The notes under the pieces are model-generated. The model made no database searches. It saw only the letters and a program-made list of their open reading frames with translations, and had not been told where the DNA came from. Below, in pieces: positions 203-61,207 of a stretch of 64,000 nucleotides of DNA (position 1 is the first letter of the stretch; the number at the start of each line of letters is the position of its first letter). The DNA lies in the NCBI GenBank assembly GCA_041649755.1, contig JBAZMK010000001.1:66826-130825 (forward strand), read 5' to 3'. The position numbers and the translations under genes are program-made. This DNA comes from Candidatus Pacearchaeota archaeon. Lineage in GTDB: Archaea > Nanobdellota > Nanobdellia > Pacearchaeales > GW2011-AR1.

Positions 203-210
203 TTTATAAA
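203..210 (+). promoter_or_regulatory. TATA box (tttataaa) about 25 nt upstream of the EF-2 ATG; would give a leaderless or short-leader transcript
   Basis: TTTATAAA centred 22-29 nt upstream of ATG 232; archaeal promoter geometry. Confidence 0.35.
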
Positions 211-231
211 GCATTTTTTCAATAATTGTTA

Positions 232-2403
232 ATGGCTGAAGATATGACTGTAAAGGTTAAGAAACTACAAAAAGACCCGACTCACATTCGTAATATTGCT
301 ATTTGCGCCCATATTGACCATGGTAAGACTACTTTTTCTGATAATCTGTTAGCAGGGGCAGGAATGCTTTCTGCCGAACTTGCCGGTAAGCAGTGTGCAT
401 TAGACTTTCATGAAGATGAGGCGGCGAGGGGGATAACAATAGATTCTGCCAGTGTTTCGATGATTCATAAATTTGATAATGAAGACTATTTAATTAACCT
501 AATTGATACTCCTGGTCACGTAGATTTTGGAGGAGATGTTACGAGAGCTATGAGGGCGGTTGATGGTGCGATTGTTCTTTGCTGTGCAAGTGAAGGAATA
601 ATGCCTCAGACAGAAACTGTTTTAAGACAGGCTTTGAAAGAGAGAGTAAAACCAGTTTTATTTATTAACAAAGTGGACAGATTAATTAGAGAAGTAAAAC
701 TAACCCCTGAAGAGATGCAAAAGAGATTTATTGATATAATTAATAATGTTAATAAGCTCATATTAAATATTGCTGAAGAAGAATATGGTTCAAAATGGCG
801 GGTTAGTGTTAATGAGGGGAGCGTGGCTTTTGGTTCGGCGTTTCATAACTGGGCATTGAGTATTCCTTATATGAAAAAGAAAGGAATTAGCTTTAAAGAG
901 ATAATTGATGCTTACGAATCTGGGGGGGAGAATTATAAAGAACTCGCGAAAAAGGCTCCTATTCACGAAGTCGTTTTAAATATGGTTATAAGAAACCACC
1001 CTAATCCTAAAGAAGCACAGGATTATAGAATCCCTAAGATATGGCACGGAGATGCTGATAGTTCTATTGGAAAGGATTTAAGGTCTTGCAATCCTGATGG
1101 AGAGGTTGCTTTTGTCCCTATTAAAATTGTAATTGATCCCCATGCTGGGGAGGTTGCTGCGGGAAGACTATTCTCGGGAAAAATAAAACAAGGAGATGAA
1201 CTCCATATGAACATTGCTAATAGAACTGTTAGGGTCCAGCAAGTTTCGGTTTATAAAGGGGCTCAGAGAGTTCAGCTTGATGAAGTCATAGCAGGAAATA
1301 TTGTAGGAATTGTCGGCTTAAGAGATGTTGTTGTTGGAGAGACTGTCTCTAAAAATCCGATTGAGCCTTTTGATGCGATTACTCATCTTTTTGAGCCAGT
1401 TGTTACAAAATCTATTACTGCAAAGAGGACTGCAGATTTGTCTAAATTAATTGAGGTTTTAAGGCAGGTTGGAAAGGAAGACCCGAGCCTTAGAATAGAA
1501 ATCAACGAGGAAACAGGGGAGTCTCTTATGTCTGGTATGGGGGAACTTCATTTAGAGATTATTGAAAACAGAATAAAAACAGAGAAAGGATTGGAAGTTG
1601 AGATGGGTCCGCCAATTGTTGTGTTTAGGGAGTCTGTTGTTAAGAAAAGCGAGCCTGCAGAAGGAAGATCTCCTAATAAGCATAATACTTTTTACCTTAC
1701 TGTTGAACCTTTGGAAGATAAGATTTCGGAAGCAATTGCTGAGGGGAAGCTTCCTGAAGGGAGAATAAAAAAGAAAGATAAAACCTTAGACGAAACGTTA
1801 GTAAAACTTGGAATTACTAGAGAAGAAGCACAGCAGTATAGGGATATTTTTCACGGGAATGTTTTTTTAGATAAGACGAAGGGAGAGGTTCATATTGGTG
1901 AAGTAATCGAACTTGTTTTGGACTCTTTTGAGGAAGTTATGAAGGCTGGTCCTTTGGCACGGGAACCTTGTTTGAGACTAAAAGTTTCTTTGGTTGACCT
2001 TAAACTTCACGAAGATGCAATACACAGGGGTCCTGCACAGGTTTATCCTGCTATTAGGGAATCTGTTAGAGAGGCTTTCGCTAAAGCGGTCCCAGCAATT
2101 TTTGAGCCTGTTCAGGTTCATCAGATTGAAGCACCAAACAATTTTATGGGGGCTGTTACATCGCTTATTTCTTCAAAGAGAGGAAATTTAATTGATGTAA
2201 ATCAGGATGCGGCAATGGTTACTATAAAAGCAGAGATTCCTGTCCAGGAGATGATTGGCTGGACCAGTGACCTTAGAAGTGCTACTGAGGGGCGAGGGGT
2301 TTCCAGTTTAGTTAGTCAGACTTTCAAGAAACTACCTAATGAACTTCAGACAAAGATAATAAGGCAGGTCAGAGATAGGAAAGGTTTGGCAGAAAATCAG
2401 TAA
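232..2403 (+). CDS. fusA: Translation elongation factor 2 (aEF-2)
   Basis: GTPase G1 motif AHIDHGKTT, DTPGHVDF, NKVD; length and domain order of archaeal/eukaryotic EF-2; true start is probably ATG 232 (MAEDMTVK) rather than the TTG at 226. Confidence 0.95.
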   Translation: MAEDMTVKVKKLQKDPTHIRNIAICAHIDHGKTTFSDNLLAGAGMLSAELAGKQCALDFHEDEAARGITIDSASVSMIHKFDNEDYLINLIDTPGHVDFGGDVTRAMRAVDGAIVLCCASEGIMPQTETVLRQALKERVKPVLFINKVDRLIREVKLTPEEMQKRFIDIINNVNKLILNIAEEEYGSKWRVSVNEGSVAFGSAFHNWALSIPYMKKKGISFKEIIDAYESGGENYKELAKKAPIHEVVLNMVIRNHPNPKEAQDYRIPKIWHGDADSSIGKDLRSCNPDGEVAFVPIKIVIDPHAGEVAAGRLFSGKIKQGDELHMNIANRTVRVQQVSVYKGAQRVQLDEVIAGNIVGIVGLRDVVVGETVSKNPIEPFDAITHLFEPVVTKSITAKRTADLSKLIEVLRQVGKEDPSLRIEINEETGESLMSGMGELHLEIIENRIKTEKGLEVEMGPPIVVFRESVVKKSEPAEGRSPNKHNTFYLTVEPLEDKISEAIAEGKLPEGRIKKKDKTLDETLVKLGITREEAQQYRDIFHGNVFLDKTKGEVHIGEVIELVLDSFEEVMKAGPLAREPCLRLKVSLVDLKLHEDAIHRGPAQVYPAIRESVREAFAKAVPAIFEPVQVHQIEAPNNFMGAVTSLISSKRGNLIDVNQDAAMVTIKAEIPVQEMIGWTSDLRSATEGRGVSSLVSQTFKKLPNELQTKIIRQVRDRKGLAENQ

Positions 2404-3032
2404 CTTAATCCTTTTTTCTTTGCGCAACTTGCACAAATTAAGTGTGTATCTTCTAAAGACATATAATACCTGTTCCCTTCCTCTAAAATATCATTGAATC
2501 TTGCCCAGCCTTCTTCTACGGTTAATTCCCCTTCTACAACTTCTTCAGGTATTTTTTCGGCTTCTTCCAGAATATGTGCCCGTTTTTGCCACATCTTTGC
2601 GTGGTAGAGATTTGGTTTTGCTGAACGGGAAATTTTTGCTCCACAAAGGAAACATTTATTTTGTTTCAGAAGAAGCTCTTGCTCTCTTTCTGTCCAACGA
2701 CGCTGGAAATCTACATCTTGAATTAAGTTTTTGTAATTAGCTACTCCTCCAAATCTAAAGAACTTTAGATTAACATTTCCGTTTGGGGACAGGATTACCT
2801 CACCAATTTTTTTAGTGTATCTCCAAATAATAAATTTTTTCTCTTTTCTTGGGGTTGTTACTGGACGACCTATTCTAAAAGATTTTGAGCCAAGAATGAT
2901 TTTACCTATTTGGACGGGGACTTTCTCCCTATTTTTTTGCTTCTTCTCCCTATTTTTTTGCTTTTCTCTCCTATCTTTTTTAGAGATATAACCTGGTTCA
3001 CCTGGGAGAATATCGGGGGTTTTTATTACCAT
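2397..3032 (-). CDS. Hypothetical protein with lysine-rich repeat N-terminus and C-terminal CxxC...H...H...CxxC zinc-ribbon/HNH-like motif
   Basis: Repeats REKQKNREKKQKNREK encoded by a 21-bp tandem DNA repeat; CFLCGAK...NLYHAK...AH...CASCAKK; convergent, overlaps the fusA stop by 7 nt. Confidence 0.45.
   Translation of the reverse strand: MVIKTPDILPGEPGYISKKDRREKQKNREKKQKNREKVPVQIGKIILGSKSFRIGRPVTTPRKEKKFIIWRYTKKIGEVILSPNGNVNLKFFRFGGVANYKNLIQDVDFQRRWTEREQELLLKQNKCFLCGAKISRSAKPNLYHAKMWQKRAHILEEAEKIPEEVVEGELTVEEGWARFNDILEEGNRYYMSLEDTHLICASCAKKKGLSY
2925..2967. repeat. Two-copy imperfect 21-bp tandem repeat (ctatttttttgcttcttctcc / ctatttttttgcttttctctcc) inside CDS 2397-3032
   Basis: Direct reading of the sequence; it encodes the KNREKKQ peptide repeats on the - strand. 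Confidence 0.5.
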
Positions 3033-3078
3033 AATCTCACTAAGAAAAGACGGTTTAAAAAATTGTTGTTCGGAAAAT

Positions 3079-3086
3079 ATATAAAT
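3079..3086 (+). promoter_or_regulatory. TATA box (atataaat) upstream of lysS
   Basis: AT-rich TATA-like octamer about 24 nt upstream of ATG 3107. Confidence 0.3.
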
Positions 3087-3106
3087 AGGGTTTATCTTGT
3101 TTGATT

Positions 3107-4573
3107 ATGGCAGGAAGAAAAGAGCAGATTGTTGGTGAGAGATTGAGAAAAATTGGTGAGTTAAAAATTTCTGGAACTAATCCTTATCCGCAGAGATTTG
3201 AGAAAAAAAATATGATTAGTGAGTGTTTTAAGATTGATAAGAAAGTTAAAACTGCCGGGAGATTAGTTAGTAAGAGAGATATTGGGAAGATTATTTTTTC
3301 AAAGATTCAGGACGAGTCGGGTTCTATTCAAGTTGTTTTGCAGGAAGGCAAGACTAAACAAGAATTTATTGATTTTTTTAAAAGTTATATAGATTTAGGA
3401 GATATTGTTGGGGTTTCAGGAAAAGTGATTAAGACAAAGACGGGGGAGATTTCAATTCTTTGCGAGAAACTTGAACTTTTGAGTAAGTCAGTTTTACCTT
3501 TGCCTGAAAAGTGGCACGGACTTCAGGAAAAAGAAGACAGATATAGGAAAAGGTATCTGGATATGATTGTTAATCCAGAAGTTTTGGAGGTTTTTAAGAA
3601 GAAAAGTGTGATTATTGATACAATTAGAGGTTATCTGAAAAAAAATAATTTTACAGAGGTTGAGACGCCGAATTTGCAGGCAATTTACGGGGGGGCGAGT
3701 GCAGAACCTTTTAGAACTCATTTGAATGCTCTTGATATGGATTTATTCCTTTCAATTTCTCCAGAACTTTATCTGAAAAGACTTATTGTCGGGGGGTTTG
3801 ATAGGGTTTTTACAATTTCAAAGAACTTTAGGAATGAAGGAATTGATGCTACTCACAATCCTGAGTTTACAATGATGGAATTTTATTGTGCTTATTCAAA
3901 TTATGAAAAACTTATGGTTATGACAGAAGAGATGCTGAAACTTATTTTTAAGAATTTGAAAATAAAGGAAGAAATTAAATCAGGAGAGAAGTTAATTAAA
4001 TTTAAGTTTCCGATAAAAAGGGTCAGGTTTTGGGATTTAATTCTTGAAAAGACGGGAATTGACCTTGAGAAAATGAGCGATTTTGATTCGCTTAAAGAAG
4101 AGATTGAAAGAAAGGGGATAAAGGGGGTTGATATTTCAGGGTGCAAACATTACGGAGCTTTGCTTGATGAACTTTATAAAAGGGTTGTAAGACCGAGCAT
4201 CGTTGAGCCTATTTTCCTTACTCATTACCCTGTTGAGATGATTGCTCTTGCGAAAAGAAATGAAGAAAATCCCAGACTCATTAATACTTTTCAATTAATT
4301 GTTGACGGGGCGGAGCTTGTTAAGGCTTATGACGAGTTGAATGACCCTTTTGACCAAGAGAAGCGTTTAAAGGAGCAGGCCGATTTGCTTTGCGAAGGCG
4401 ACAGGGAAGCAATGCCTATGGACATTGATTTTATTGAAGCTTTGAAAACGGGAATGCCTCCGACAGCAGGTTATGGTATGGGGATTGACAGAATTGCAAT
4501 TTTGCTGACCGAACAAGAGTCTATAAGAGATGTTATTCCTTTCCCTTTTATGAAGCCTGAGGTTGAAGATTGA
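3107..4573 (+). CDS. lysS: Lysyl-tRNA synthetase, class II
   Basis: N-terminal OB anticodon-binding region; class II motif 2 FRNEGIDATHNPEFTMMEFY; motif 3 GMGIDRIAILLT; likely start at ATG 3107 (MAGRKEQ). Confidence 0.9.
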   Translation: MAGRKEQIVGERLRKIGELKISGTNPYPQRFEKKNMISECFKIDKKVKTAGRLVSKRDIGKIIFSKIQDESGSIQVVLQEGKTKQEFIDFFKSYIDLGDIVGVSGKVIKTKTGEISILCEKLELLSKSVLPLPEKWHGLQEKEDRYRKRYLDMIVNPEVLEVFKKKSVIIDTIRGYLKKNNFTEVETPNLQAIYGGASAEPFRTHLNALDMDLFLSISPELYLKRLIVGGFDRVFTISKNFRNEGIDATHNPEFTMMEFYCAYSNYEKLMVMTEEMLKLIFKNLKIKEEIKSGEKLIKFKFPIKRVRFWDLILEKTGIDLEKMSDFDSLKEEIERKGIKGVDISGCKHYGALLDELYKRVVRPSIVEPIFLTHYPVEMIALAKRNEENPRLINTFQLIVDGAELVKAYDELNDPFDQEKRLKEQADLLCEGDREAMPMDIDFIEALKTGMPPTAGYGMGIDRIAILLTEQESIRDVIPFPFMKPEVED

Positions 4574-4576
4574 AAT

Positions 4577-4738
4577 ATGGCGTTGGTGATAAAAAGTAAT
4601 ATTAGAAAGTATGTTGAGGCGAGTGTGTCTGACGAGTTTGAGAGGGAATTTGAGAGGAAAACGGAAGAGATGCTGAAAAAAGCTGAAGAACGGGCGAAGG
4701 CTAACGGGCGAAGGACTCTTTTTGCACGAGATTTATAA
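4577..4738 (+). CDS. Small (53 aa) histone-fold-like / DUF1931-like DNA-binding protein; missed by the ORF track (<60 aa)
   Basis: ATG..TAA frame MALVIKSNIRKYVEASVSDEFEREFERKTEEMLKKAEERAKANGRRTLFARDL; pattern VS.D...E.....EEM...A...A...GRRT..A.D resembles the archaeal histone / DUF1931 helix-strand-helix. Confidence 0.35.
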   Translation: MALVIKSNIRKYVEASVSDEFEREFERKTEEMLKKAEERAKANGRRTLFARDL

Positions 4739-4739
4739 T

Positions 4740-5783
4740 TTAGCAGACAACTTTTCCGTTTAAAATTTGTTCTCTTAAATTATTGATTTCTTCTTCTGTT
4801 TTTTTGGCTCTACCCTTGAGTAATTGTTCTAAATCTTTTGATTCTAATTCTAATATTCTCTTTAAATCTTTGAGTTCTCTTACTATCTGTGAAATCTCTT
4901 TGCTTGTAAGATTTAGATGTGATAGGAATCTGTATCCTTTCGGCATTATGTTCTCTTCAACAGGTTTTTCAAATATGAGACGAGAAATTGATTCTAGGTC
5001 TAAAATTCCTTCAAAAGTAAGATTTTCAAGAAGATTTACAGATTTTTTCAAAGATAATATTGAATAATCTCTAAGAAGTTCACTTTTTGTTTTTTCTATT
5101 CCTCTTAGAAGTTCCCTGTATCTCATCTGCATAACATTGCCTTCTTTTCCGAGTTCTGTAAAACTTTTTTTAATTGATTCTGAGATTTTCATTATCATTT
5201 CTGTTCTTTGGAGGACCTTGCAAACATCACCTACGGAAACGAGTTTTGACATTTCAAGGATGTTGAGGGTTCCTAATTGCTCGTCGAAAATTTCCCTTTG
5301 CTTTTCAAGAATCTGAAGGGTTGAACTAATCTCCCTTATTAATTCTTCTGTTGTTTTAAGATAATACTTTGAGTTTTGGAAATAAAGAGTTGTCTTTCTT
5401 TTTCTTTCTGAGATAGCGATGACAAAAGTTTTTGCCTGTTTTGCTATCCTTTCTGCAGCTTTATGGCGTGTTCCAGTTTCGTTAGTGTGTATGGAGTTGT
5501 CGGGAGTCATTAGTACATTTGCATAGAGAATTCTCTTAAAGTCATCTGAAATTATTATCCCCCCGTCCATTTTGCATAGTTCAAAGAGTTTTTGTGCTGT
5601 AAAACGGCAGTTAATCCTGAATCCTCCCTCAAAAAGCCCTTTTTCGTGAAGTTCGGGAGAATCAAAAACAATTATTGCTCCAAGGTCAGACCTTAAAAGG
5701 TCGTCTATCACATTTCTTAGTGTTGTTCCGGGGGAAACTATCTTTATTAAATCTATGAAGTTTTTCTCTTTTTCTGCAACCAT
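4740..5783 (-). CDS. disA: DisA-type diadenylate cyclase (DNA integrity scanning protein family)
   Basis: DAC domain motifs DGAIIV / DGGIIISDD and RHKAAERIAKQ (bacterial consensus GTRHRAA), helical linker and C-terminal helical region; 347 aa. Confidence 0.8.
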   Translation of the reverse strand: MVAEKEKNFIDLIKIVSPGTTLRNVIDDLLRSDLGAIIVFDSPELHEKGLFEGGFRINCRFTAQKLFELCKMDGGIIISDDFKRILYANVLMTPDNSIHTNETGTRHKAAERIAKQAKTFVIAISERKRKTTLYFQNSKYYLKTTEELIREISSTLQILEKQREIFDEQLGTLNILEMSKLVSVGDVCKVLQRTEMIMKISESIKKSFTELGKEGNVMQMRYRELLRGIEKTKSELLRDYSILSLKKSVNLLENLTFEGILDLESISRLIFEKPVEENIMPKGYRFLSHLNLTSKEISQIVRELKDLKRILELESKDLEQLLKGRAKKTEEEINNLREQILNGKVVC

Positions 5784-5805
5784 GGGGAAAACAAGAACAT
5801 CTACT

Positions 5806-5813
5806 ATTTATAA
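5806..5813 (-). promoter_or_regulatory. TATA box (ttataaat on - strand) about 25 nt upstream of the disA start
   Basis: Reverse complement of 5806-5813 gives GTTATAAATAG; distance to ATG 5783 is about 25 nt. Confidence 0.3.
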
Positions 5814-5909
5814 CTTTATGTATCTCTTCGTATTTACTGGAAAATAAGAAAATGAAATTAAGAAATATAGTATAATAATCTTTAAATAAGTTTTATTTTT
5901 AATTTTTAT

Positions 5910-6272
5910 ATGGGTTTATTCAGTCTATTAGAAAATACTTCCAGCCCTTTTGAAAGACGGAGGATTATTGAAAAGTTTTTAGAAACACAAGATTTATCAA
6001 AAATAATTCCTGCCAAATCAGGACTTTCTAAAGAGGATAGTGTTCCTTCAGAAGATCCTCCTTATCGAGGGGATGTAATAACGGTTCTTCCCTTTGCAAA
6101 AGGTGGCAGATATCGAATAAAAGAACCTATAGTAGAAGATGGTATAGTCTATGTTTTGGGTATTGTTCAGCCCCGTAGTCGGTTACTGGTAGTTGACGAA
6201 AAAGATGACCTTTATGTCTTACATAGGGAGGAGATTTATTTCCCTATCCCCTCTAATCACATTTTTATATAA
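5910..6272 (+). CDS. Hypothetical protein (120 aa)
   Basis: ORF with ATG; no recognisable motifs. Confidence 0.4.
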   Translation: MGLFSLLENTSSPFERRRIIEKFLETQDLSKIIPAKSGLSKEDSVPSEDPPYRGDVITVLPFAKGGRYRIKEPIVEDGIVYVLGIVQPRSRLLVVDEKDDLYVLHREEIYFPIPSNHIFI

Positions 6273-6279
6273 GTAAAAG

Positions 6280-6287
6280 TTATAAAA
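6280..6287 (+). promoter_or_regulatory. TATA box (ttataaaa) upstream of kae1
   Basis: Centred about 24 nt upstream of ATG 6308. Confidence 0.35.
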
Positions 6288-52873: not shown

Positions 52874-53128
52874 ATGGAAGTTAAAATAATTAAAGATGAA
52901 AAGAATGAACTTGATATAGAGTTGGATAACCTTACAGTTGCAGAGCTTTTGAGAGTTTATCTAAATAAAAATGATGTTAAGATGGTTGCTTGGAAAAGAG
53001 ACCATCCTACAAAAAACCCTGTTTTACATATAGAAGCAGACAATCCGAAAAAGGCTTTAAAGAATTCAATAGCCCAGATAGAAAAAGAGATAGAATCTGC
53101 ATTAAAGGAATTTAAAAAATTAAAGTGA
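52874..53128 (+). CDS. rpoL: DNA-directed RNA polymerase subunit L (Rpo11)
   Basis: Size and pattern NELDIELDNLTVAELLR...HP...P.LHIEAD of Rpo11/RpoL. Confidence 0.65.
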   Translation: MEVKIIKDEKNELDIELDNLTVAELLRVYLNKNDVKMVAWKRDHPTKNPVLHIEADNPKKALKNSIAQIEKEIESALKEFKKLK

Positions 53129-54133
53129 ATTTTTTCTTTTGTTCTTTTTTGCTTCTTTTTTGCTTCTCACTAAAAAGTATATTATTATTATGTCAAGAAC
53201 TATTAAAGAAGTCAGGGTTACTATTGCTCCTCTGAATTTTTTCTCGCTTCCTTCAAGAACAAAGAAAGAGTATGAACCCGTCGCTATGTTTTCTCCATAA
53301 GAGGCTTTTAGATAGAGAACATATTGACCTGGAGGGAGGTCTCTGGGGATGCTTAAACCCCTTACTAATTCAAGTTTATCTTCTATTGCGATGCTTTCCT
53401 CTTTAAATGTCAAAATGTTACCATCAAAATCTTTTATAGCATAATAAAAGAAAACATCTATGCCTTTTAAGTGCCCCATATTTGTAAGGTTAAAACTCAC
53501 TTCAACTTTTTGACCAGAATAAACATAATCCTCTGTCAACTCCCCACTGACATCAAATAAGGGGGACCTTTCTTTAATATTAATTAAAACATTTATATAT
53601 TTAGTTAGGTTCCCTGATTTTACATTTATTTTTCCAGTATAAACTTCGGGTATTTCTTTATCTTCTGCAAAAACCGTAACGCCTATGTTTTTGATTTCCT
53701 GAGGGCTTAGACTAAATTTTTCTTCACTTAAAAACAAAAATTTTTCAAGGTTATGTGAAAGAGTTATGCTTTGCGAGTTATTTCCGGTGTTTTTCACTTT
53801 AATAGACCCGTTTGCTGTTTCTCCCTGCTTAATAGAATAATATAGGAAGTTCTTGTCTAATTCAAAATTGGAGATGCTCAATGGGGGTCCTACGCTAATC
53901 CCTCCGCTAGGACCTCCCCCTTCAGGAATATCGGGTGCTGGGGGGGCAGGACATTCACCACAATCTTCTTGACAAGAAGTACAATTCTCGTTCCACTCAC
54001 AAACACCATTCCCACAAACTCCGGGAATTGAGACTCTTGAAGGGGTCTGAACAGCATATCCGACATATCTTATTGTAAATACGGAAAGAAGACCTAATAA
54101 TAAAAAAACAACCAACCAAGATTTATTTTCCAT
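53120..54133 (-). CDS. Secreted surface protein: Cys-rich N-terminal module, Pro-rich linker, CARDB-like beta-sandwich, C-terminal TM plus Lys-rich tail
   Basis: Signal MENKSWLVVFLLLGLLSVF; CGNGVCEWNENCTSCQEDCGECPAPPAP; TM IVTLTSLIVLDIIIIYFLV + KKEAKKNKRKNSL. Confidence 0.55.
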   Translation of the reverse strand: MENKSWLVVFLLLGLLSVFTIRYVGYAVQTPSRVSIPGVCGNGVCEWNENCTSCQEDCGECPAPPAPDIPEGGGPSGGISVGPPLSISNFELDKNFLYYSIKQGETANGSIKVKNTGNNSQSITLSHNLEKFLFLSEEKFSLSPQEIKNIGVTVFAEDKEIPEVYTGKINVKSGNLTKYINVLINIKERSPLFDVSGELTEDYVYSGQKVEVSFNLTNMGHLKGIDVFFYYAIKDFDGNILTFKEESIAIEDKLELVRGLSIPRDLPPGQYVLYLKASYGENIATGSYSFFVLEGSEKKFRGAIVTLTSLIVLDIIIIYFLVRSKKEAKKNKRKNSL

Positions 54134-54153
54134 AGAAAATTGTAAGTAAAATA

Positions 54154-54816
54154 CTATTTATTTCTTTTCAATTTTTTCTTTCTGACAATTTTCCTTTTAA
54201 TCTTTCTTTTTGGCATTGATTGCGTGATAGAAGTCGGGGATTTATTATAATTTTTACGAACAAGGAATATTATTATAATAAGAGAGACTACAGCAATCAG
54301 GATATAAAGGGCGGTAAGGTCTCTTCCAGATGAATTACAAATTACTTTGATTCTTAAGGGGGCAGAAACTACCATCTGAGTGGCTGAACCTCCAGAATTA
54401 TCTATTTCAGAGGGATTTGCTACTGATTTAACCATTACTTCGCCAGAGAAGATTTTTTGTTCCTCAGAACATTCTTGTTTACATAATGTCCCTAAAAAAC
54501 AATCTTTTTCGTATACCTGGGGAACTTCAAAGCAAAATTCTATAGGTATCGCACTACCACTCGGGGTATTTGCAGGGATTAATTTTGTTTCAGTTTCCTG
54601 AAAAATCAAGACCTCTTTCAATTCTTCTGATAACTCAATCACTACATAGCTTTCTGTGGGCCAGGGATTATAAACTCCATAGCTTACACAGGCTTTACCA
54701 CCCTCCTCTAAGACAATTGACTCTTTTTCCCACTTAATTCCAACACCTGCTAACGAAAGTGGAACTAAAGATAAAATCCCTAAAATTAACCCTGCTAATA
54801 TCACCTCTTTTTTCAT
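54154..54816 (-). CDS. Secreted surface protein with C-terminal TM plus Lys-rich tail
   Basis: Signal MKKEVILAGLILGILSLVPLSLA; TM ALYILIAVVSLIIIIFLV + RKKKLKRNK. Confidence 0.5.
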   Translation of the reverse strand: MKKEVILAGLILGILSLVPLSLAGVGIKWEKESIVLEEGGKACVSYGVYNPWPTESYVVIELSEELKEVLIFQETETKLIPANTPSGSAIPIEFCFEVPQVYEKDCFLGTLCKQECSEEQKIFSGEVMVKSVANPSEIDNSGGSATQMVVSAPLRIKVICNSSGRDLTALYILIAVVSLIIIIFLVRKNYNKSPTSITQSMPKRKIKRKIVRKKKLKRNK

Positions 54817-54817
54817 T

Positions 54818-55402
54818 TTATTCGCAATTTCCTCCTGTAATTACTCCCTTAAAATAGACTGTATTATTATATGTTCCTACTGGTTGTGCTGCAGGGATAT
54901 CCAACCAAAATCGGTAATAGAAATTACTTCCTTTCTCTATATCCACTCCTGACTTAACATAACTCTTTGTAAGTGAAACTTCACTCGCTACGGCAGGCGT
55001 ACCTGCATCTGTTGTTGTGGAATTTGCGTATGTTTGATTACCCACTCCAATAATCTCCAGTTCCTGACTCATCAGGTCTTCATTTGCTTTAATGCACAAA
55101 TCCACATTAGAATTACTATCGTTTGAAACTTCAATATACATTGTACTTCCACTGCTCCCCCCATCATGATTATGGGTTGCGTTCACATTTGTTCCAGGTA
55201 ATTCATTTATTGTTCCAAATAAGATTCCTTCGCCTAAGTTGCTTGACATCTGGATTGCCAAATAAGAAGTGATTGTAACATTTGAAACTGCAGAGCCCTC
55301 TGTAACGTATCCTGTCATTCCGATACTTTGCAAGAGAATCATTGAAATGGATAAAACTAATAGAATTCCGAAGAAAACAATAAAGAAATTATCTCTTTTC
55401 AT
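54818..55402 (-). CDS. Secreted protein whose C-terminal ~100 aa is homologous to the C-terminus of the giant protein 55439-61207
   Basis: VDLCIKANEDLMSQELEIIGVGNQT...YYRFWLDIPAAQPVGTYNNTVYFKGV aligns with VDVYLKANSDLMTADLDTLGIGNET...IYLKFFLSAPPAQPAGVYNNSLLFKAV. Confidence 0.5.
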   Translation of the reverse strand: MKRDNFFIVFFGILLVLSISMILLQSIGMTGYVTEGSAVSNVTITSYLAIQMSSNLGEGILFGTINELPGTNVNATHNHDGGSSGSTMYIEVSNDSNSNVDLCIKANEDLMSQELEIIGVGNQTYANSTTTDAGTPAVASEVSLTKSYVKSGVDIEKGSNFYYRFWLDIPAAQPVGTYNNTVYFKGVITGGNCE

Positions 55403-55438: not shown

Positions 55439-58400
55439 TCAAGGAGTCTGGCCGTGAGGAACTGCTTTGAATAAAAGAGAGTTGTTGTAAACTCCTGCCG
55501 GCTGAGCGGGGGGTGCACTCAAGAAAAATTTCAAATAGATGACGCTTCCATCGCCAAGATTGTCTCCTATCTTATTATCATAATCTGTTGTAAGACTATA
55601 TTTAGTTTCACTTGGAACGCTCTGATTATCATAACTATACGAAAAAGTTTCGTTTCCGATTCCAAGAGTATCTAAATCAGCGGTCATTAAATCTGAGTTT
55701 GCTTTTAAGTAAACATCTACGCCAGAACTTAAAGTAGAGATATTTATGTAATAATCTGTTGAGCCTTCGCCATTATTCCCTTCTGCCGACTGATTGAATA
55801 TGGGTAAGGAAGAGATTGTCCAATTTATCTTATCATTTAGCTTATCAGAGAAATAAATCGCTATTCCTTCTTCTGCAGATTGTATTGTTAAATTCCATTC
55901 TCCCGTCGCATTAGAGATATCTAGATTAGAAGTTAAATTAGCAAACGCATAAAAACTATGTGTATTACTCGCCTCTCCTGTTGCGTTTACCCAGAAAGTT
56001 ATCGTCTCACTCTGTCCTTCGGTCAATGAAGAAGTTGTCAAAGGATTTGAACTTGCATTTGTGTAGAAAGGCGTTCCAGAATTAATAGGAATTAAACCTG
56101 AGGAGTATAAGCTTGTGTTGATTGTTTCACAATTCCCTTCAAGACAGGTCACATTTAAGGTTACATTAAAAAATTCGTTTTGTGTTATATTAATATTCTC
56201 TGTCGGATATAAAACCTCTAACCCTATTAAAGGAGTTGAATTAACAAAGAAAACAACGGATTCCGTATCGTTTAAATTTCCTGCAGTATCATTACAATAA
56301 GCATAAATTGTGTAAGTATTGTTTGATGATATAGAATAAGTTGAATTGAACACTAAATTATCTGTGGTGTCCATTGAAAAGTTTGAGGTTCCGTTTCCGA
56401 ACCAGCAAGTTCCTTCTTCGTTGATTGTAAAATTCACCACGATAGAAGTTGTTGAATAAGAGTATGTTTGATTTAGTGGAGAGTTTATTGTTACAGAAGG
56501 TGGAGTTGCATCCATTCCACTAATTGTTACCGTTCTCATTTCAGTTTCATTCACATTCCCAGCCATATCTTGTGTGTATGCTTTGAATGTGTGTGTTCCT
56601 TCTGCTAAACTTGTGAAGTTATGGTAGGAGTTTCCGCTCCAGACAGTTAAGTTTCCTCTTTTTACTAGTATAATATGGTTTGGAACAGTTACATCGTAGA
56701 TTCTTCCATTGTAATTCTCTTTTGTTATGTTTTTTATTTTTATTTCTCTGCCTTTTTCATCTAAAAATACCAAATTATCTGTATTTTTATTGCCTTTTTC
56801 AATTTCAGAGTATAATTCAGAGATTTTTATTAGGTTGAAATTGTTTAGTTCTTCCCTACCAAAAGGTTTAAATACTTTATTTGTATGCAAATAAGATAAA
56901 TAATTACTTTGTAAATCCAAGATGGGAACAATCACTCTATCTGTGCCTGATGAATTGAAGTCTGAAATGGATAGTACTGATTTTATTAATTGGTCTTCAG
57001 TAGCAAGAAGGGCATTTTTGGAGGTACTCAAGGATGTTAAAAAATTAGAATTATTAAAGAAACTTAGAGAAATTTCTGAAATATCTGATGATGACAGAAG
57101 AGAGATTAAAGATTCTCTTGTCAAAGAAGTAGTGGATTCTGTTGAAAAGGTTTCTAAAGACTTAAAGTCCGGCAAGATCAAGCCGAAAAGCTTAAAAGAA
57201 TTCAATGCATTCTGTGAGTCATGAATATTGATACTACCCTTATTGATGATACTCTCATCAAGCTTAGAAAAAAAGATTTGACTCTTTTTAGGGCTCTTCA
57301 AAAGAAAATCTGCCAAATTGCCCAACTCGATTGGGATTCCCTTCAGCATTTCAAAAATTTGAGGGGGAGCCTTAAAGACTATAAGCGAGTCCATGTTGGA
57401 AGTTACGTCCTTATTTTCAAGGTAGAAAGAGAGGTTATTATCTTCGCCAAATTTGTCCATCATGACGAGGCTTACTGAGCCGCGCTTTTCTTTTTTATTA
57501 GAATAAGCAACATAAACTTTATGCTCAGGTGAAACGAGCAGGCTTCCTTTTTCTTCATCATAATTTTCAGTTTCAATTCTGTACATTTCTTCATTTTCAT
57601 GTGCAAAATCCTGTTTTTCAGTTGGTTTTTGCCATTCAGTTTCTCCTGAATTTGAATTAAGAGTGAGGATTTCATCCTCTAAACTTACATTTGAAAAATG
57701 TTTCCAGCCAGAATCAGTCATAACTTCTGTTTCATTATCAAAACAGTATTTTGTACTCTGGTTTGCGTATAATGCCTGAATTTCTTCAGCAGATAAACTT
57801 CTATTAAATATCATTACATCGTCGATGGAACCGTTGAAACTTTGACTATTATCTGATTTAGAACCTATATTAGCAGTATTCAAGTTTATTGGACGTCCAC
57901 TAAAAGCATAATAGCTACCTCCATATTGCCCATTTAAATACAGAAATATGCCACTTTCATTATTGATTACTACAAGATTATTCCAAGTATCTTCTGTAAT
58001 AACTGGACCATTAATATTAATATTAGGTCCATCAGAATCCCATCTAACCCGCACAATATCATCGTCTGACCACCTAATAAAAGCACTAGGATAGCCAGTT
58101 CCTGCAAGATTAAATAAGTAATTATCAGTTCCATCATTTATTGCTTTAAACCAAAGCGAAATGGTAGAATAAGTATATGAAACACTAGGTCCAGCAACAT
58201 CAACATAATCCCCATCTCCATCAAACTCAAACCCCTTCCCTAGTTTTCCAGCAGTTGTTTGTTTTGCATCCCCTTGTTTTGTTCCATTGTTGCTTCCAGT
58301 ATAATCTACCACTGTTGTTCCATTAAAGTCATCCATCCTCCACCATCCTACTAATGAATTATCAAAGTCAATGAATGTGCTTATGTTGCTATTTCCTCTT

Positions 58401-61207
58401 CCAATATCACTTGCCGAAACATTCACAAAAATAAAGTCATCACTTGTAACATTCCCTTCTTCAAGCGTCGGGGGAACAAATTCTATTAGAGGTTTCATAT
58501 CTTCTTCAAATTCCCACCCCAATCTAGGGTAATCATTTCCATCATCAATAAACCAAGTTTCATTTACATAATCGCCTTTTTCTGCAATGTTCCAACTTGC
58601 TGTTGTAAAAGTAGATATGTTTTGCATTTGTGCTGTTGTTTTTCCTATTGCGTCTCCTCCTCCTGTTGATTGTCCAGATGATTCAGTGTCCCAAAAAGAA
58701 TTTGTATCTATCCCTTGGTCTAACCCAACAAAACCTTTATCTGTTGGGTCATCTGTTCCTTCATAATGAACTGAACCTGTTGAATAAGATTTATTAATCC
58801 TGCCCACATAATTCCTTCCAGCAAAACCCCCATTAGCTGTTGAAGTTCCTGAAATACGGGTAACACTTCCAGTAGAGTAGGAATTTGAAATATTTGATCC
58901 ATCACTCATCCCAACAAATCCCCCTATGTAATAAGTCCCCGAGGAATTTCCTTTTGCGTAACAGGAATCAACCATTATATTAATACTATGACCTATAAAC
59001 CCCCCGTTTGTCTCTACACTTCCAGAAACATTTCCACTTGACCAGCAATTAGTAATATAAACAGAGGCATAATTTGAATTAGCATACCCTACAAGACCCC
59101 CTAAGTACGAAGTCCCAGAAATATTACCTATGAAATAACTATTTGTAACATTGCCTGAACGAAGATAACCAATTAAACCCCCTACCCATTGTCCTGTACT
59201 AGATACTAAGCAAGAGGAATTAGAGGAGGTTATAGAACTAATATAAGAAGGATAAAAAGAACCCACTAATCCCCCTGCAGTTCCTCCTGTAGATGTAATA
59301 GCCCCGCTTGACCAGCAGTTTGCAATAGAGACATTATTATACCCATTACCTAATATTGCCCCAACATCAGCCTTTCCCGTAACATCACAATCAATAACCC
59401 CTAAATTACTGACAGAGCCTCCATTAATCCTCCCAAACAAGCCCTGATAATCCGTTCCGCTTCTATTAGTATATAGATTACTGATTGTATGATTTTGTCC
59501 GTCAAAAGTTCCTGTAAATGTAGCAATAGGCAACCAACCAGCACCTGTTGTAAACGCTTCCATATTGTCACAATTTTCATAGGAATCGCAATCGCTAAAA
59601 TTTAAATCTCTTAAAAGAATATAAGAAGCAGATAAATTATTTCTTGTTTCGTTTAAGTCTTCAACTGAGTTAATTTCTATTGGTGGGTCAATAACATAAT
59701 CATATTCTATATCCCCAAAACTTCTCAAGTCAAAAGTATCCTGTTCTCCTTCAAGTTCAGTAAGATAAATTTTATACTCTCCTCCCTCATAGATATTATC
59801 AAAAACTGCTAGTGTTTCGTTATTATCTTTTTCGTAAACTTTTACATTTCCAGAATCGTTACTTCTTGCATAAATTGTAATATCTTTTTCATTTGTCAAA
59901 TTCTCTTCAAAAGTCACTCTCAAATATTCTCCATTGGGAATCAAAACATAACTGCCGTCTAATCCTTTCACACTTTCGTAAACATCTTCTAAGAATGTGT
60001 AATTTTCATCTAAATGTTCTGCTTTGGTTATTTCAATTATCTCAAATGTCGGGTCAAGTTCAATAATCTGTCCAATTTCGGTTTCCTCTGAACTAAAATC
60101 TCTTTCTATATAGACGGTTACTATATTTTCATAGAATAATTCTTCTTTAGGACCTTTTACTTCTTCAACAACCCGCGAAGTGACGCCAGAGATAAACTTT
60201 ATTACCGAGCCTGTTATGTCGCCTTCGTTAGAGACCTCTTCTCCCCCGTTAGATTCTTCTGTAAAATTTTCTTCTAAATCCTCAGAAGTATTATCTTCTT
60301 CTAAACTATTTTCTTCGGTTTCTTCATCAGGCAAGAGTTCTTCAACCGAATCTAAAGAAAGATTTTCCATATTCCCCTCTTCGGTTATGTTTGAAGGTTC
60401 TTCTGCAGATAAATTCTCTGTTAGTTCTGTTAAGTTTTCTTCTTCGGTTAGGTTCTCTAAAAAGCCTATACCTGTTTCGTTAGCAGTTACATTCTCTTTT
60501 TCTTCTGTGAAGTTATAATCTTCTTCTAATTCAGATGAATTATCTGTTAATTCTGTTAGGTTTTCTTCTTTAGTTATGTTCAGCTCTTCCGGTATAAATT
60601 CTATTTCAGGAAGACCAATTTTGACATTATAACCCTGCCCTTCTAAATCGCTAAAAGAGATTATAGACCTCCCGATTTGAAGCGTGCTATCATTAATAAT
60701 TTTAATAGTGAGACTGGAGGTTACGTCAATTTTAGCTGAAAAATTTAACTCATTTAACTGGATATAATAACCCCACTTGTACTTTTGTTCTTCTTTCGTG
60801 TCCTCTTCAACTTTTATATCAAAATCTTCAGCCGGAGCCACTGATGAATCCGCAATCTCTTTTAATTTTTCTGAGAGATTCTCAGGATTTTCATTTAAAA
60901 CCCCTTTATTTTTATTAATCTCCTCAACAAAATCGCTGTGATTCAGCAAATCAAAGTAAATTCTTATCATTCCTTCTTCAAGTTCAAAGTCCATTCTTTT
61001 ATTTTTATTAAAGCTTCTAACTTCTCCCATAAATTTTGAAGGTTCTTTAATTTCCAGTTTTGAAGAGTCTTTTTCTATTCTTGTTTCAACAACCTCATCA
61101 GAAATTACATATCCTACGATAGAATTGTTAGAAATTAAAATAAGAAGAAAAAGTAAAAGGAAAAATCCTATAATAATTTTATACCTCTTACCGCCATTAA
61201 TTCTCAT
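55439..61207 (-). CDS. Giant (1922 aa) cell-surface protein: signal/TM, acidic sequon-rich region, GLUG-type Gly-rich repeats, LamG (ConA-like) domain, Hint/intein-like domain, Ig-like domains, shared C-terminal module
   Basis: N-terminal KRYKIIIGFFLLLFLLILI; dozens of NxT/S sequons; repeats GG[LF][VI]G every ~20 aa (GLUG-like); LamG motif LWFKA...IDDVMIFNRSLSAEEIQALY; Hint blocks CFDNETEVMT, GSLLVSPEHKVYV, RIYDVTVPNHIILV...GNS. Confidence 0.8.
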   Translation of the reverse strand: MRINGGKRYKIIIGFFLLLFLLILISNNSIVGYVISDEVVETRIEKDSSKLEIKEPSKFMGEVRSFNKNKRMDFELEEGMIRIYFDLLNHSDFVEEINKNKGVLNENPENLSEKLKEIADSSVAPAEDFDIKVEEDTKEEQKYKWGYYIQLNELNFSAKIDVTSSLTIKIINDSTLQIGRSIISFSDLEGQGYNVKIGLPEIEFIPEELNITKEENLTELTDNSSELEEDYNFTEEKENVTANETGIGFLENLTEEENLTELTENLSAEEPSNITEEGNMENLSLDSVEELLPDEETEENSLEEDNTSEDLEENFTEESNGGEEVSNEGDITGSVIKFISGVTSRVVEEVKGPKEELFYENIVTVYIERDFSSEETEIGQIIELDPTFEIIEITKAEHLDENYTFLEDVYESVKGLDGSYVLIPNGEYLRVTFEENLTNEKDITIYARSNDSGNVKVYEKDNNETLAVFDNIYEGGEYKIYLTELEGEQDTFDLRSFGDIEYDYVIDPPIEINSVEDLNETRNNLSASYILLRDLNFSDCDSYENCDNMEAFTTGAGWLPIATFTGTFDGQNHTISNLYTNRSGTDYQGLFGRINGGSVSNLGVIDCDVTGKADVGAILGNGYNNVSIANCWSSGAITSTGGTAGGLVGSFYPSYISSITSSNSSCLVSSTGQWVGGLIGYLRSGNVTNSYFIGNISGTSYLGGLVGYANSNYASVYITNCWSSGNVSGSVETNGGFIGHSINIMVDSCYAKGNSSGTYYIGGFVGMSDGSNISNSYSTGSVTRISGTSTANGGFAGRNYVGRINKSYSTGSVHYEGTDDPTDKGFVGLDQGIDTNSFWDTESSGQSTGGGDAIGKTTAQMQNISTFTTASWNIAEKGDYVNETWFIDDGNDYPRLGWEFEEDMKPLIEFVPPTLEEGNVTSDDFIFVNVSASDIGRGNSNISTFIDFDNSLVGWWRMDDFNGTTVVDYTGSNNGTKQGDAKQTTAGKLGKGFEFDGDGDYVDVAGPSVSYTYSTISLWFKAINDGTDNYLFNLAGTGYPSAFIRWSDDDIVRVRWDSDGPNININGPVITEDTWNNLVVINNESGIFLYLNGQYGGSYYAFSGRPINLNTANIGSKSDNSQSFNGSIDDVMIFNRSLSAEEIQALYANQSTKYCFDNETEVMTDSGWKHFSNVSLEDEILTLNSNSGETEWQKPTEKQDFAHENEEMYRIETENYDEEKGSLLVSPEHKVYVAYSNKKEKRGSVSLVMMDKFGEDNNLSFYLENKDVTSNMDSLIVFKAPPQIFEMLKGIPIELGNLADFLLKSPKKSQIFFSKLDESIINKGSINIHDSQNALNSFKLFGLILPDFKSLETFSTESTTSLTRESLISLLSSSDISEISLSFFNNSNFLTSLSTSKNALLATEDQLIKSVLSISDFNSSGTDRVIVPILDLQSNYLSYLHTNKVFKPFGREELNNFNLIKISELYSEIEKGNKNTDNLVFLDEKGREIKIKNITKENYNGRIYDVTVPNHIILVKRGNLTVWSGNSYHNFTSLAEGTHTFKAYTQDMAGNVNETEMRTVTISGMDATPPSVTINSPLNQTYSYSTTSIVVNFTINEEGTCWFGNGTSNFSMDTTDNLVFNSTYSISSNNTYTIYAYCNDTAGNLNDTESVVFFVNSTPLIGLEVLYPTENINITQNEFFNVTLNVTCLEGNCETINTSLYSSGLIPINSGTPFYTNASSNPLTTSSLTEGQSETITFWVNATGEASNTHSFYAFANLTSNLDISNATGEWNLTIQSAEEGIAIYFSDKLNDKINWTISSLPIFNQSAEGNNGEGSTDYYINISTLSSGVDVYLKANSDLMTADLDTLGIGNETFSYSYDNQSVPSETKYSLTTDYDNKIGDNLGDGSVIYLKFFLSAPPAQPAGVYNNSLLFKAVPHGQTP
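56922..57224 (+). CDS. Ribbon-helix-helix (CopG-like) antitoxin
   Basis: N-terminal beta-strand/helix TITLSVPDELKSEMD..INWSSVARRAFLEVL; acidic C-terminal half; stop overlaps the toxin start (ATGA); lies on the strand opposite the giant gene. Confidence 0.6.
   Translation: MGTITLSVPDELKSEMDSTDFINWSSVARRAFLEVLKDVKKLELLKKLREISEISDDDRREIKDSLVKEVVDSVEKVSKDLKSGKIKPKSLKEFNAFCES
57221..57478 (+). CDS. RelE/ParE-family toxin (85 aa)
   Basis: C-terminal GSLKDYKRVHVGSYVLIFKVEREVIIFAKFVHHDEAY matches the RelE/ParE consensus (G.l.g.yRlRvGdYRiiY.v.d...v.il.i.hRkd.Y). Confidence 0.7.
   Translation: MNIDTTLIDDTLIKLRKKDLTLFRALQKKICQIAQLDWDSLQHFKNLRGSLKDYKRVHVGSYVLIFKVEREVIIFAKFVHHDEAY

Follow-up and report, generated by a model that had tools for sequence, protein, structure and literature searches.

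A stretch of 64,000 nucleotides from Candidatus Pacearchaeota archaeon (contig JBAZMK010000001.1, positions 66,826 to 130,825; hereafter the window, whose own numbering is used) encodes a giant surface protein interrupted by an intein, and the middle of this intein almost certainly carries, on the opposite strand and in the slot of the homing endonuclease, a complete type II toxin-antitoxin (TA) operon with its own expression signals. These data are best explained, with a probability of about 80%, if an intein that is spliced out of its host protein offers selfish TA cassettes a safe harbour in its endonuclease slot. By comparison with related loci, the window copy is one member of an architecture widespread in DPANN archaea, which was recognized in at least 11 further loci of this group. 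The parts are known (class-1 inteins, and RelE/YafQ-RHH, PIN and DUF433/DUF5615 modules); their combined layout is apparently undescribed. The full-text literature, in which subscription journals were thinly covered, yielded no account of inteins that contain TA modules or antisense genes, which leaves absence unproven.

The intein and its splicing domains

The host gene (55439..61207, minus strand; open reading frame (ORF) translation and Pfam) encodes a protein of 1922 residues with an N-terminal hydrophobic segment, GLUG motifs, a LamG domain, the intein and immunoglobulin (Ig)-like/Big_13 domains, as delimited with Pfam. The insertion point lies between the LamG and Ig-like domains: Laminin_G_3 covers residues 996–1144, and the intein starts at residue 1155, 10 residues past LamG. 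A preliminary description, made from the letters alone, had placed an intein or Hint module directly after LamG in this non-housekeeping protein, with a start at Cys1 (CFDNETEVMT), a block B, a C-terminus followed by Ser, and a penultimate Gly instead of His. The Pfam coordinates and the translation of 56630-57745 agree with these statements, and the catalytic residues, the relatives and the junctions described below speak for a genuine module of this type.

The intein (56630..57745, minus strand) was delimited from its translation, TIGR01445, AlphaFold, Foldseek and intein-less homologues. It is 372 residues long from Cys1 to the terminal Asn, with CFDNETEVMT at the start, GSLLVSPEHKVYVAY inside and NGRIYDVTVPNHIILVKRGNLTVWSGN at the end; its C-terminal stretch reads ...IYDVTVPNHIILVKRGNLTVWSGN and is followed by the +1 Ser (codon at 56627-56629, minus strand). 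The catalytic set is present: C1, the block B His, the Asp/His of block F, the terminal Asn (N372) and the +1 Ser. Block B contains SPEH, in which the His is kept and Ser replaces the Thr of TxxH. A penultimate Gly is a known variation among inteins, and the 'SGN' end is found throughout this family, including its endonuclease-bearing members. C1, the terminal Asn and the +1 Ser are also kept in loci L001, L003–L006, L020 and L021, and the C-terminal subdomain is conserved across L001–L021.

The preliminary description had assigned all 372 residues to the intein fold, which has to be amended. Based on an alignment of 14 sequences, AlphaFold modelled only the two ends with confidence: an N-terminal splicing subdomain (residues 1–84, 57494..57745, minus strand; block A CFDNETEV, block B VSPEHKVY), which matches TIGR01445 and has a predicted local distance difference test score (pLDDT) of ~90, and a C-terminal splicing subdomain (residues 300–372, 56630..56848, minus strand; block F IYDVTVPNHIILV, block G VWSGN), with a pLDDT of ~87. 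Only these parts form the Hint fold; residues 85–299 have no predicted fold (pLDDT<50). In Pfam and NCBIfam scans, no endonuclease family matched the intein, whose slot lies between block B and the C-terminal subdomain. A search with intein and Hint models, which had been proposed as a check, gave a divided answer: the NCBIfam model intein_Nterm (TIGR01445) matched residues 1–79 of the isolated segment above its cutoff (29.7 bits, E 9.5e-7; cutoff 24.5 bits), whereas Pfam Intein_splicing (PF14890) and Hint_2 (PF13403) stayed below cutoff on the full protein. The top Foldseek matches in the PDB were exclusively inteins and Hint domains (AceL NrdHF, PI-PfuI, Pho/Tli VMA, Hedgehog, BIL and gp41-1). 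A phmmer search of 1.84 billion representative proteins returned 2694 relatives (E<=1e-3), of which 378 reach E<=1e-10; many are giant proteins of up to 7293 residues. Outside surface proteins, the inteins closest in sequence match PF14890 and PF14528, carry a LAGLIDADG endonuclease in frame and are located in helicases, methylases and similar proteins.

Homologues of the LamG/Ig-like flank that lack the intein are contiguous over the junction (..ALYANTSTKYVSNNFTGL.. in P0017 and ..ALYANQSTKYLGVNFTSL.. in P0020), and the exact extein junctions, another check proposed beforehand, could be defined from them. No gap is needed to align the predicted spliced product, whose junction peptide is ..ALYANQSTKY-SYHNFTSLAEGTH.., with P0017, P0020 and P0022. 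In these intein-less proteins, the +1 residue is V, L, Y or E, and the Ser nucleophile thus tracks with the intein.

The window copy probably still splices. The strongest competing explanation, which is nevertheless unlikely, is a dead intein: the 372-residue insert would stay in the mature protein as a tolerated loop between domains, and the frame would be kept open solely to preserve the downstream domains. It draws on the missing penultimate His, on the decay seen in related copies and on the position of the insertion in an inter-domain linker that is variable and might accommodate an additional loop. However, the catalytic residues and the +1 Ser are retained across copies of only 40–50% identity at different extein sites, the 'SGN' end also occurs in relatives that look active and carry endonucleases, the splicing subdomains are modelled with high confidence, and the residues found at +1 in the intein-less homologues tie the Ser to the intein.

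Less probable still, at odds of well under one in ten, is a Hint/BIL-type autoprocessing domain, in which N- or C-terminal cleavage would mature the secreted protein without ligating its flanks. In its favour, BIL domains typically occur in proteins like this host, which is secreted and variable; BIL and Hedgehog Hint domains are also among the Foldseek matches; and in two related loci (L010 and L007) the N-terminal part is missing while the C-terminal Asn and Ser are retained. Identification as a true class-1 intein rather than a BIL domain is nonetheless supported, because the closest sequence relatives carry LAGLIDADG endonucleases, the +1 nucleophile is conserved, 'SGN' is a family trait and the predicted spliced product is gap-free against the intein-less homologues.

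The opposite-strand operon and coding on both strands

The linker between the splicing subdomains (residues 85–299, 56849..57493, minus strand) consists of 215 Ser/Leu/Phe/Asn-rich residues and is the antisense translation of a TA operon and its promoter. The first gene of this operon (56922..57224, plus strand) encodes a ribbon-helix-helix (RHH) antitoxin of 100 residues, which matches NF050799 (VapB-type, E 1e-6) and whose free-standing orthologues carry the Pfam domain RHH_12 (PF26688). The second (57221..57478, plus strand) encodes a toxin of 85 residues, an mRNA interferase of the RelE/YafQ/ParE superfamily according to TIGR00053, PF05016 and AlphaFold/Foldseek; its start overlaps the antitoxin stop by ATGA. 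The toxin matches TIGR00053 (YafQ) with an E value of 7.6e-13, although below the equivalog trusted cutoff, and PF05016 (ParE_toxin) with 23.2 bits at a cutoff of 23. In sequence searches of the PDB, the toxin weakly matched Methanocaldococcus jannaschii RelE3 and the antitoxin gave only coiled-coil noise; because the matches were weak, the toxin structure was predicted. The model (pLDDT 92.9) resembles YafQ, HP0894, YoeB, RelE and ParE in Foldseek (template modelling scores of 0.6–0.79), and the toxin keeps the family-invariant residues R56, H58, H80, H81, D82 and Y85. Forty toxin homologues with 42–87% identity (35 of them at 62–87%), some annotated as RelE/YafQ, were found in Nanoarchaeota, Woesearchaeota and Diapherotrites metagenome bins. 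Wherever the surroundings of such a homologue were examined, the toxin is paired with an RHH_12 antitoxin of 100–101 residues with the same overlap.

The 75 nt 5' of the antitoxin gene are conserved between nested and free-standing copies and contain a putative TA promoter/operator (56867..56890, plus strand). Within it, TTTAAATA (56867-56874, plus strand) is invariant in the alignment and TTGTATGCAA (56881-56890, plus strand) is a conserved near-palindrome, the family form of which is TTGTATACAA; an inverted repeat (56868-56903) extends over the same region. These elements would represent an archaeal TATA box and an autoregulatory operator. The host frame reads ..HTNKVFKPF.. across them. GC and AT skew change sign over 56850-57300. 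The cargo slot as a whole, delimited by blastn against the orthologous intein of L004, spans 623 bp (56885..57507), with approximate boundaries. An exact direct repeat of 10 nt, TTTTTATTAG, occurs on either side of the cargo at 56824-56833 and 57492-57501, 668 nt apart; it could be a target-site duplication but is about as likely to be due to chance, and it was dismissed as a sign of transposition, given that about two such matches are expected by chance (an estimate) in this AT-rich stretch.

The identical 1922-residue protein has been called as one gene on at least three metagenome contigs. At the identical locus L023 (ENA ERZ27247363 k141_1599447), the public gene calls contain this ORF only and neither of the nested genes.

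That gene callers pass over both genes, and that the Pfam match of the toxin sits at threshold, might suggest that they are chance 'shadow' ORFs of the intein linker. This reading is refuted as far as sequence evidence goes, by the match to TIGR00053, the confident RelE-fold model, the 40 homologues (many in free-standing operons of RHH_12 and toxin genes with the same ATGA overlap and promoter), the presence of unrelated TA families in the same slot at other loci and the pattern of substitution in the toxin gene.

This pattern emerges from a comparison with the free-standing copy L030. In the toxin region, 40 of 55 differences (73%) are synonymous in the toxin frame and 8 of 55 in the host frame, against a random expectation of ~20% for each; the toxin is therefore under purifying selection, and the host-frame peptide is merely kept open. 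Substitutions in the linker, read in the host frame, are mainly non-synonymous. Those in the antitoxin region are uninformative as to the selected strand, because third codon positions coincide on both strands.

Over the operon, the host frame contains no stop in 185 codons, as against 17 and 20 stops in the other two frames of the minus strand. The toxin gene is codon-aligned antisense to the host frame, such that TTA, CTA or TCA on the plus strand would be host stops. Its 11 Leu and three Ser codons include none of these three, which are common in the genes of the window (TTA makes up 35.5% and CTA 8% of Leu codons, TCA 26% of Ser codons; 36% of Leu and Ser codons combined). When the toxin was recoded synonymously with the codon usage of the window, the host frame was open in a fraction of only 0.0006 of 20,000 trials. 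The antitoxin gene shares its third codon positions with the host frame; TTA, CTA and TCA are harmless there, and eight such codons are present (TTA five, TCA two and CTA one). In this frame relation, host stops can arise only from Tyr, His or Gln codons, all of which are absent from the antitoxin gene. The host protein requires read-through of the cassette, and the frame is therefore kept stop-free by codon choice in the TA genes.

The same signature recurs elsewhere. The recoding test gave P values of 0.0035–0.0056 for L001 and 0.0014 for L003, and it was also replicated in L004 and L021. In L001, the toxin gene contains no TTA, CTA or TCA codon and the antitoxin gene eight; the codon-aligned DUF433 genes of L003, L004 and L021 likewise contain none. 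Pooled over loci, these codons account for 0 of 61 in codon-aligned cargo genes versus 220 of 492 in non-aligned ones. In a truly free-standing homologue on a 100-kb Woesearchaeota contig (L028), five of 11 Leu and Ser codons are TTA or CTA, and the antisense frame is closed.

The comparison covered 24 cargo genes in 12 loci, and every one of them is antisense and leaves the host frame open. Third positions are shared in 19 cases and the genes are codon-aligned in five; the third antisense frame and the sense frames are never used. This choice can be set beside the density of stops per 100 codons in the genes of the window, which is 3.9 in the antisense frame with shared third positions, 5.9 in the codon-aligned antisense frame and 6.5 in the third antisense frame, and 8.7 and 10.4 in the sense +1 and +2 frames, respectively. 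The antisense orientation in the two cheapest frame relations would be the path with the fewest stop-purging changes, and insertions would survive only where few, mostly synonymous, changes open the host frame.

The notion that the giant ORF is a pseudogene cut by a TA insertion and open by coincidence, for which one may cite that TA cassettes do insert into genes and that openness is not very improbable for single genes with shared third positions, is refuted statistically by the P value of ~0.0006 for the toxin alone, by the ~9 stops expected over the operon from frame-wise stop densities where none was observed, by the open host frame over all 24 cargo genes and by the ORFs of 2427 and >4655 residues that run intact through such inserts.

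Recurrence, exchange and decay of the cassettes

Related loci were found with the alignment of the C-terminal splicing region and with the intein itself as queries. RelE/ParE, DUF433, DUF5615, PIN_2 and aspartyl protease cargo were identified by Pfam matches above gathering cutoffs, and small partner and RHH-like ORFs, which have no Pfam match, by position and sequence resemblance. An antisense RHH and RelE pair is found in L001, a metagenome contig with the intein at the start of LamG. At the extein site of the window, the metagenome contigs L003 and L004 carry antisense DUF433 and DUF5615 genes, and L005 two antisense RHH-like ORFs. A small partner and PIN_2 form the antisense cargo of four metagenome contigs (L006, L009, L010 and L011) grouped under a third extein site (..YENFG/C.. 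in L006; the C-extein of L009 differs and the site in L011 is not defined), and also that of L020 (Candidatus Pacearchaeota), located at the start of LamG. L021 (Candidatus Woesearchaeota, CAYHLB010000045) has two inteins (2180-3571 and 4529-6283) in a single uninterrupted ORF of 2427 residues, the first with DUF433 and DUF5615 and the second with an RHH-like ORF and a PIN-type toxin-like ORF, the latter assigned by sequence resemblance only.

The orthologous inteins of the window and L004 provide the most direct comparison. In blastn, the intein arms and exteins have 78% and 77% nucleotide identity (78% in the N-terminal subdomain), and between them lie unrelated DNA segments of 623 bp in the window and 611 bp in L004, where DUF433 and DUF5615 are encoded; on this alignment, the difference is a cassette swap in one slot. 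The window and L001, for their part, have intein and cargo in common and different extein sites. Every extein site harbours several types of cargo, and each cargo type is found at several sites.

Among the best 146 representative relatives, 22 have an RHH-RelE read-through between recognizable N- and C-terminal splicing regions. Of 140 inteins that could be delimited, ~38 have a Ser/Leu/Phe/Asn/Ile-rich, charge-poor middle without LAGLIDADG, as is typical of antisense cargo; 56 others have a LAGLIDADG-like motif, and the remainder includes short, mini-intein-like middles. Where related inteins lie in other proteins (L013, L015–L019 and L022), their endonucleases are normal and in frame, and meaningful antisense ORFs are lacking. 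Some giant relatives (P0114, of 7293 residues, P0115, P0152, P0174 and P0199) contain inteins of 600–650 residues with cargo-like middles of 470–520 residues, or several inteins per protein, which suggests slots with two cassettes.

Free-standing copies are informative as to the movement of the cassettes. L024 (2380-3174) and also L025 have a nearly identical TA operon immediately upstream of a gene for a surface protein, from which it diverges; the antisense frame of the operon is fully open and reads ..LLVSHKQRVYAKIDD.., a remnant of block B, and the locus looks like the fossil of a former intein context. The free-standing copies L026 and L030 have only one or two antisense stops. The open frame of L024 and L025 and the nearly open frames of L026 and L030 therefore point to cassettes that move between nested and free-standing states.

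Other loci show peculiarities of their own. In L001 (1400-1545), blocks F and G are separated by ~55 extra residues, and a frameshift near an A-run is needed to reach ..GAVWSGN/S, which reflects either an assembly error or the decay of this copy. In L020 (415-900) and L021 (4560-4900), block A (CYDNETEI.TL.EV.C...) is followed, still within the N-terminal splicing subdomain, by an insertion of ~100 acidic, low-complexity residues encoded in the sense direction. L002, a remnant at the extein site of the window, is a truncated copy with an antisense retropepsin-like aspartyl protease ORF (206-616, minus strand; ALVDTGAS; Asp_protease_2, E 4e-10) and no TA pair; it was not used as support, because it is truncated and its open host frame has a P value of 0.06 alone.

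In the window itself, three small genes on the minus strand (53120-55402) lie directly downstream of the giant gene and encode products with N-terminal hydrophobic segments. The C-terminus of the 194-residue product (..PAAQPVGTYNNTVYFKGV..) resembles that of the giant protein (..PPAQPAGVYNNSLLFKAV..), and these genes may form a shared surface-structure module or operon.

Significance and comparison with known systems

On the safe-harbour explanation, the precursor would be translated through the cassette, including ~215 residues of meaningless Ser/Leu/Phe-rich linker, after which the two Hint subdomains would associate and excise themselves together with the linker, restoring the junction ..ALYANQSTKY-SYHNFTSL.., while the TA operon would be transcribed convergently from its own promoter. 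Because the intein is removed after translation, inserted DNA would be harmless to the host protein for as long as the frame stays open, which would amount to a safe harbour at the protein level. Mobile, selfish TA cassettes would have colonized the slot repeatedly and been swapped there.

A more speculative extension is that the addiction module penalizes loss of the intein allele and so replaces homing as the mechanism of persistence. Cells losing the allele by precise deletion or gene conversion would be killed or arrested by the nested TA cassette, the conserved flanks of the splicing domains would serve as homology arms for cassette exchange between inteins, and intein and cargo would spread as one unit from site to site in the giant, repetitive surface proteins that DPANN archaea encode. 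The endonuclease-less inteins would then form a new class of composite selfish element, a proposal that is tentative and at present rather doubtful. In a bolder version, the toxin nucleases (RelE, PIN and DUF5615) would themselves promote homing.

Several points weigh against the safe-harbour explanation and its extension. Splicing, transcription of the TA operon and toxicity are deduced throughout from sequence, and the addiction or stabilizing role is purely a matter of inference. The intein has Gly in place of the penultimate His, and the two Pfam models for splicing domains stayed below cutoff, as mentioned above. Some free-standing relatives of the antitoxin also lack Tyr, His and Gln, and this trait could be ancestral; more generally, an open host frame is only mildly improbable for cargo genes with shared third positions (P 0.006–1.0). 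L001 and L020 need a frameshift and L002, L007/L008 and L010 have lost the N-terminal part; some members of the family are therefore non-functional, and the window copy could itself be a recently inactivated one. Finally, the host protein is secreted, and splicing must be reconciled with export.

If the safe-harbour explanation holds, the intein would constitute a niche for mobile genes not previously recognized. The locus is also a clear-cut natural example of long antiparallel dual coding (~560 nt of overlap), in which selection on both strands can be read from codon usage, with an internal control provided by the differing frame relations of the two operon genes. It offers a candidate answer to the question of how inteins persist after loss of the endonuclease, with addiction instead of homing. 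It also exposes a blind spot of annotation, given that intein-nested TA modules, PIN toxins and the like are systematically missing from DPANN annotations. Non-conserved, secreted surface proteins of DPANN archaea contain inteins in abundance, which occupy several sites and in some proteins occur more than once; this widens the range of hosts accepted for inteins and poses the question of how splicing and export are coordinated.

Comparison with canonical class-1 inteins (PI-PfuI, PI-SceI/VMA and Pho/Tli VMA) reveals the same Hint fold split around a central slot, the same Cys1, block B His, terminal Asn and +1 Ser, and the same precise insertion with respect to intein-less homologues. Unlike them, the window intein has a slot filled by nonsense read-through of opposite-strand genes rather than by an endonuclease domain, a penultimate Gly and a host that is a variable secreted surface protein rather than a conserved replication or repair enzyme, and its family occupies several extein sites. 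Engineered inteins in which the endonuclease is replaced by a linker can still splice. Such mini- or engineered inteins, with the endonuclease deleted or replaced, also have splicing subdomains joined by a non-functional linker; the linker of the window is natural, ~215 residues long, and encoded by DNA that doubles as an opposite-strand TA operon. BIL domains form a sequence family apart from inteins, usually without a ligation-competent +1 nucleophile, in variable secreted proteins. The window intein resembles them as a Hint domain in a variable extracellular protein, with Foldseek matches to 2lwy and 6tmm, and differs in its affinity to true inteins, its retained +1 nucleophile, its ligation-compatible junctions and its archaeal host.

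The cargo itself is conventional. As in DinJ-YafQ, RelBE and archaeal aRelE-aRelB, two genes with the antitoxin first overlap by 4 nt, the toxin is an 85-residue protein with a RelE fold, the promoter contains a palindrome and free-standing orthologues exist in DPANN archaea; the operon of the window differs from these systems in being wholly nested in an opposite-strand gene and in having a codon usage shaped by the open other strand. The closest parallel for the layout may be found in group I introns, which can carry antisense homing endonuclease genes. These introns, like the window intein, are self-splicing elements with selfish opposite-strand cargo that has its own expression signals. 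However, they are removed at the RNA level, with no coding constraint on the host, whereas the cargo of an intein must be dual-coding, and their cargo is a homing nuclease where that of the window is an addiction module.

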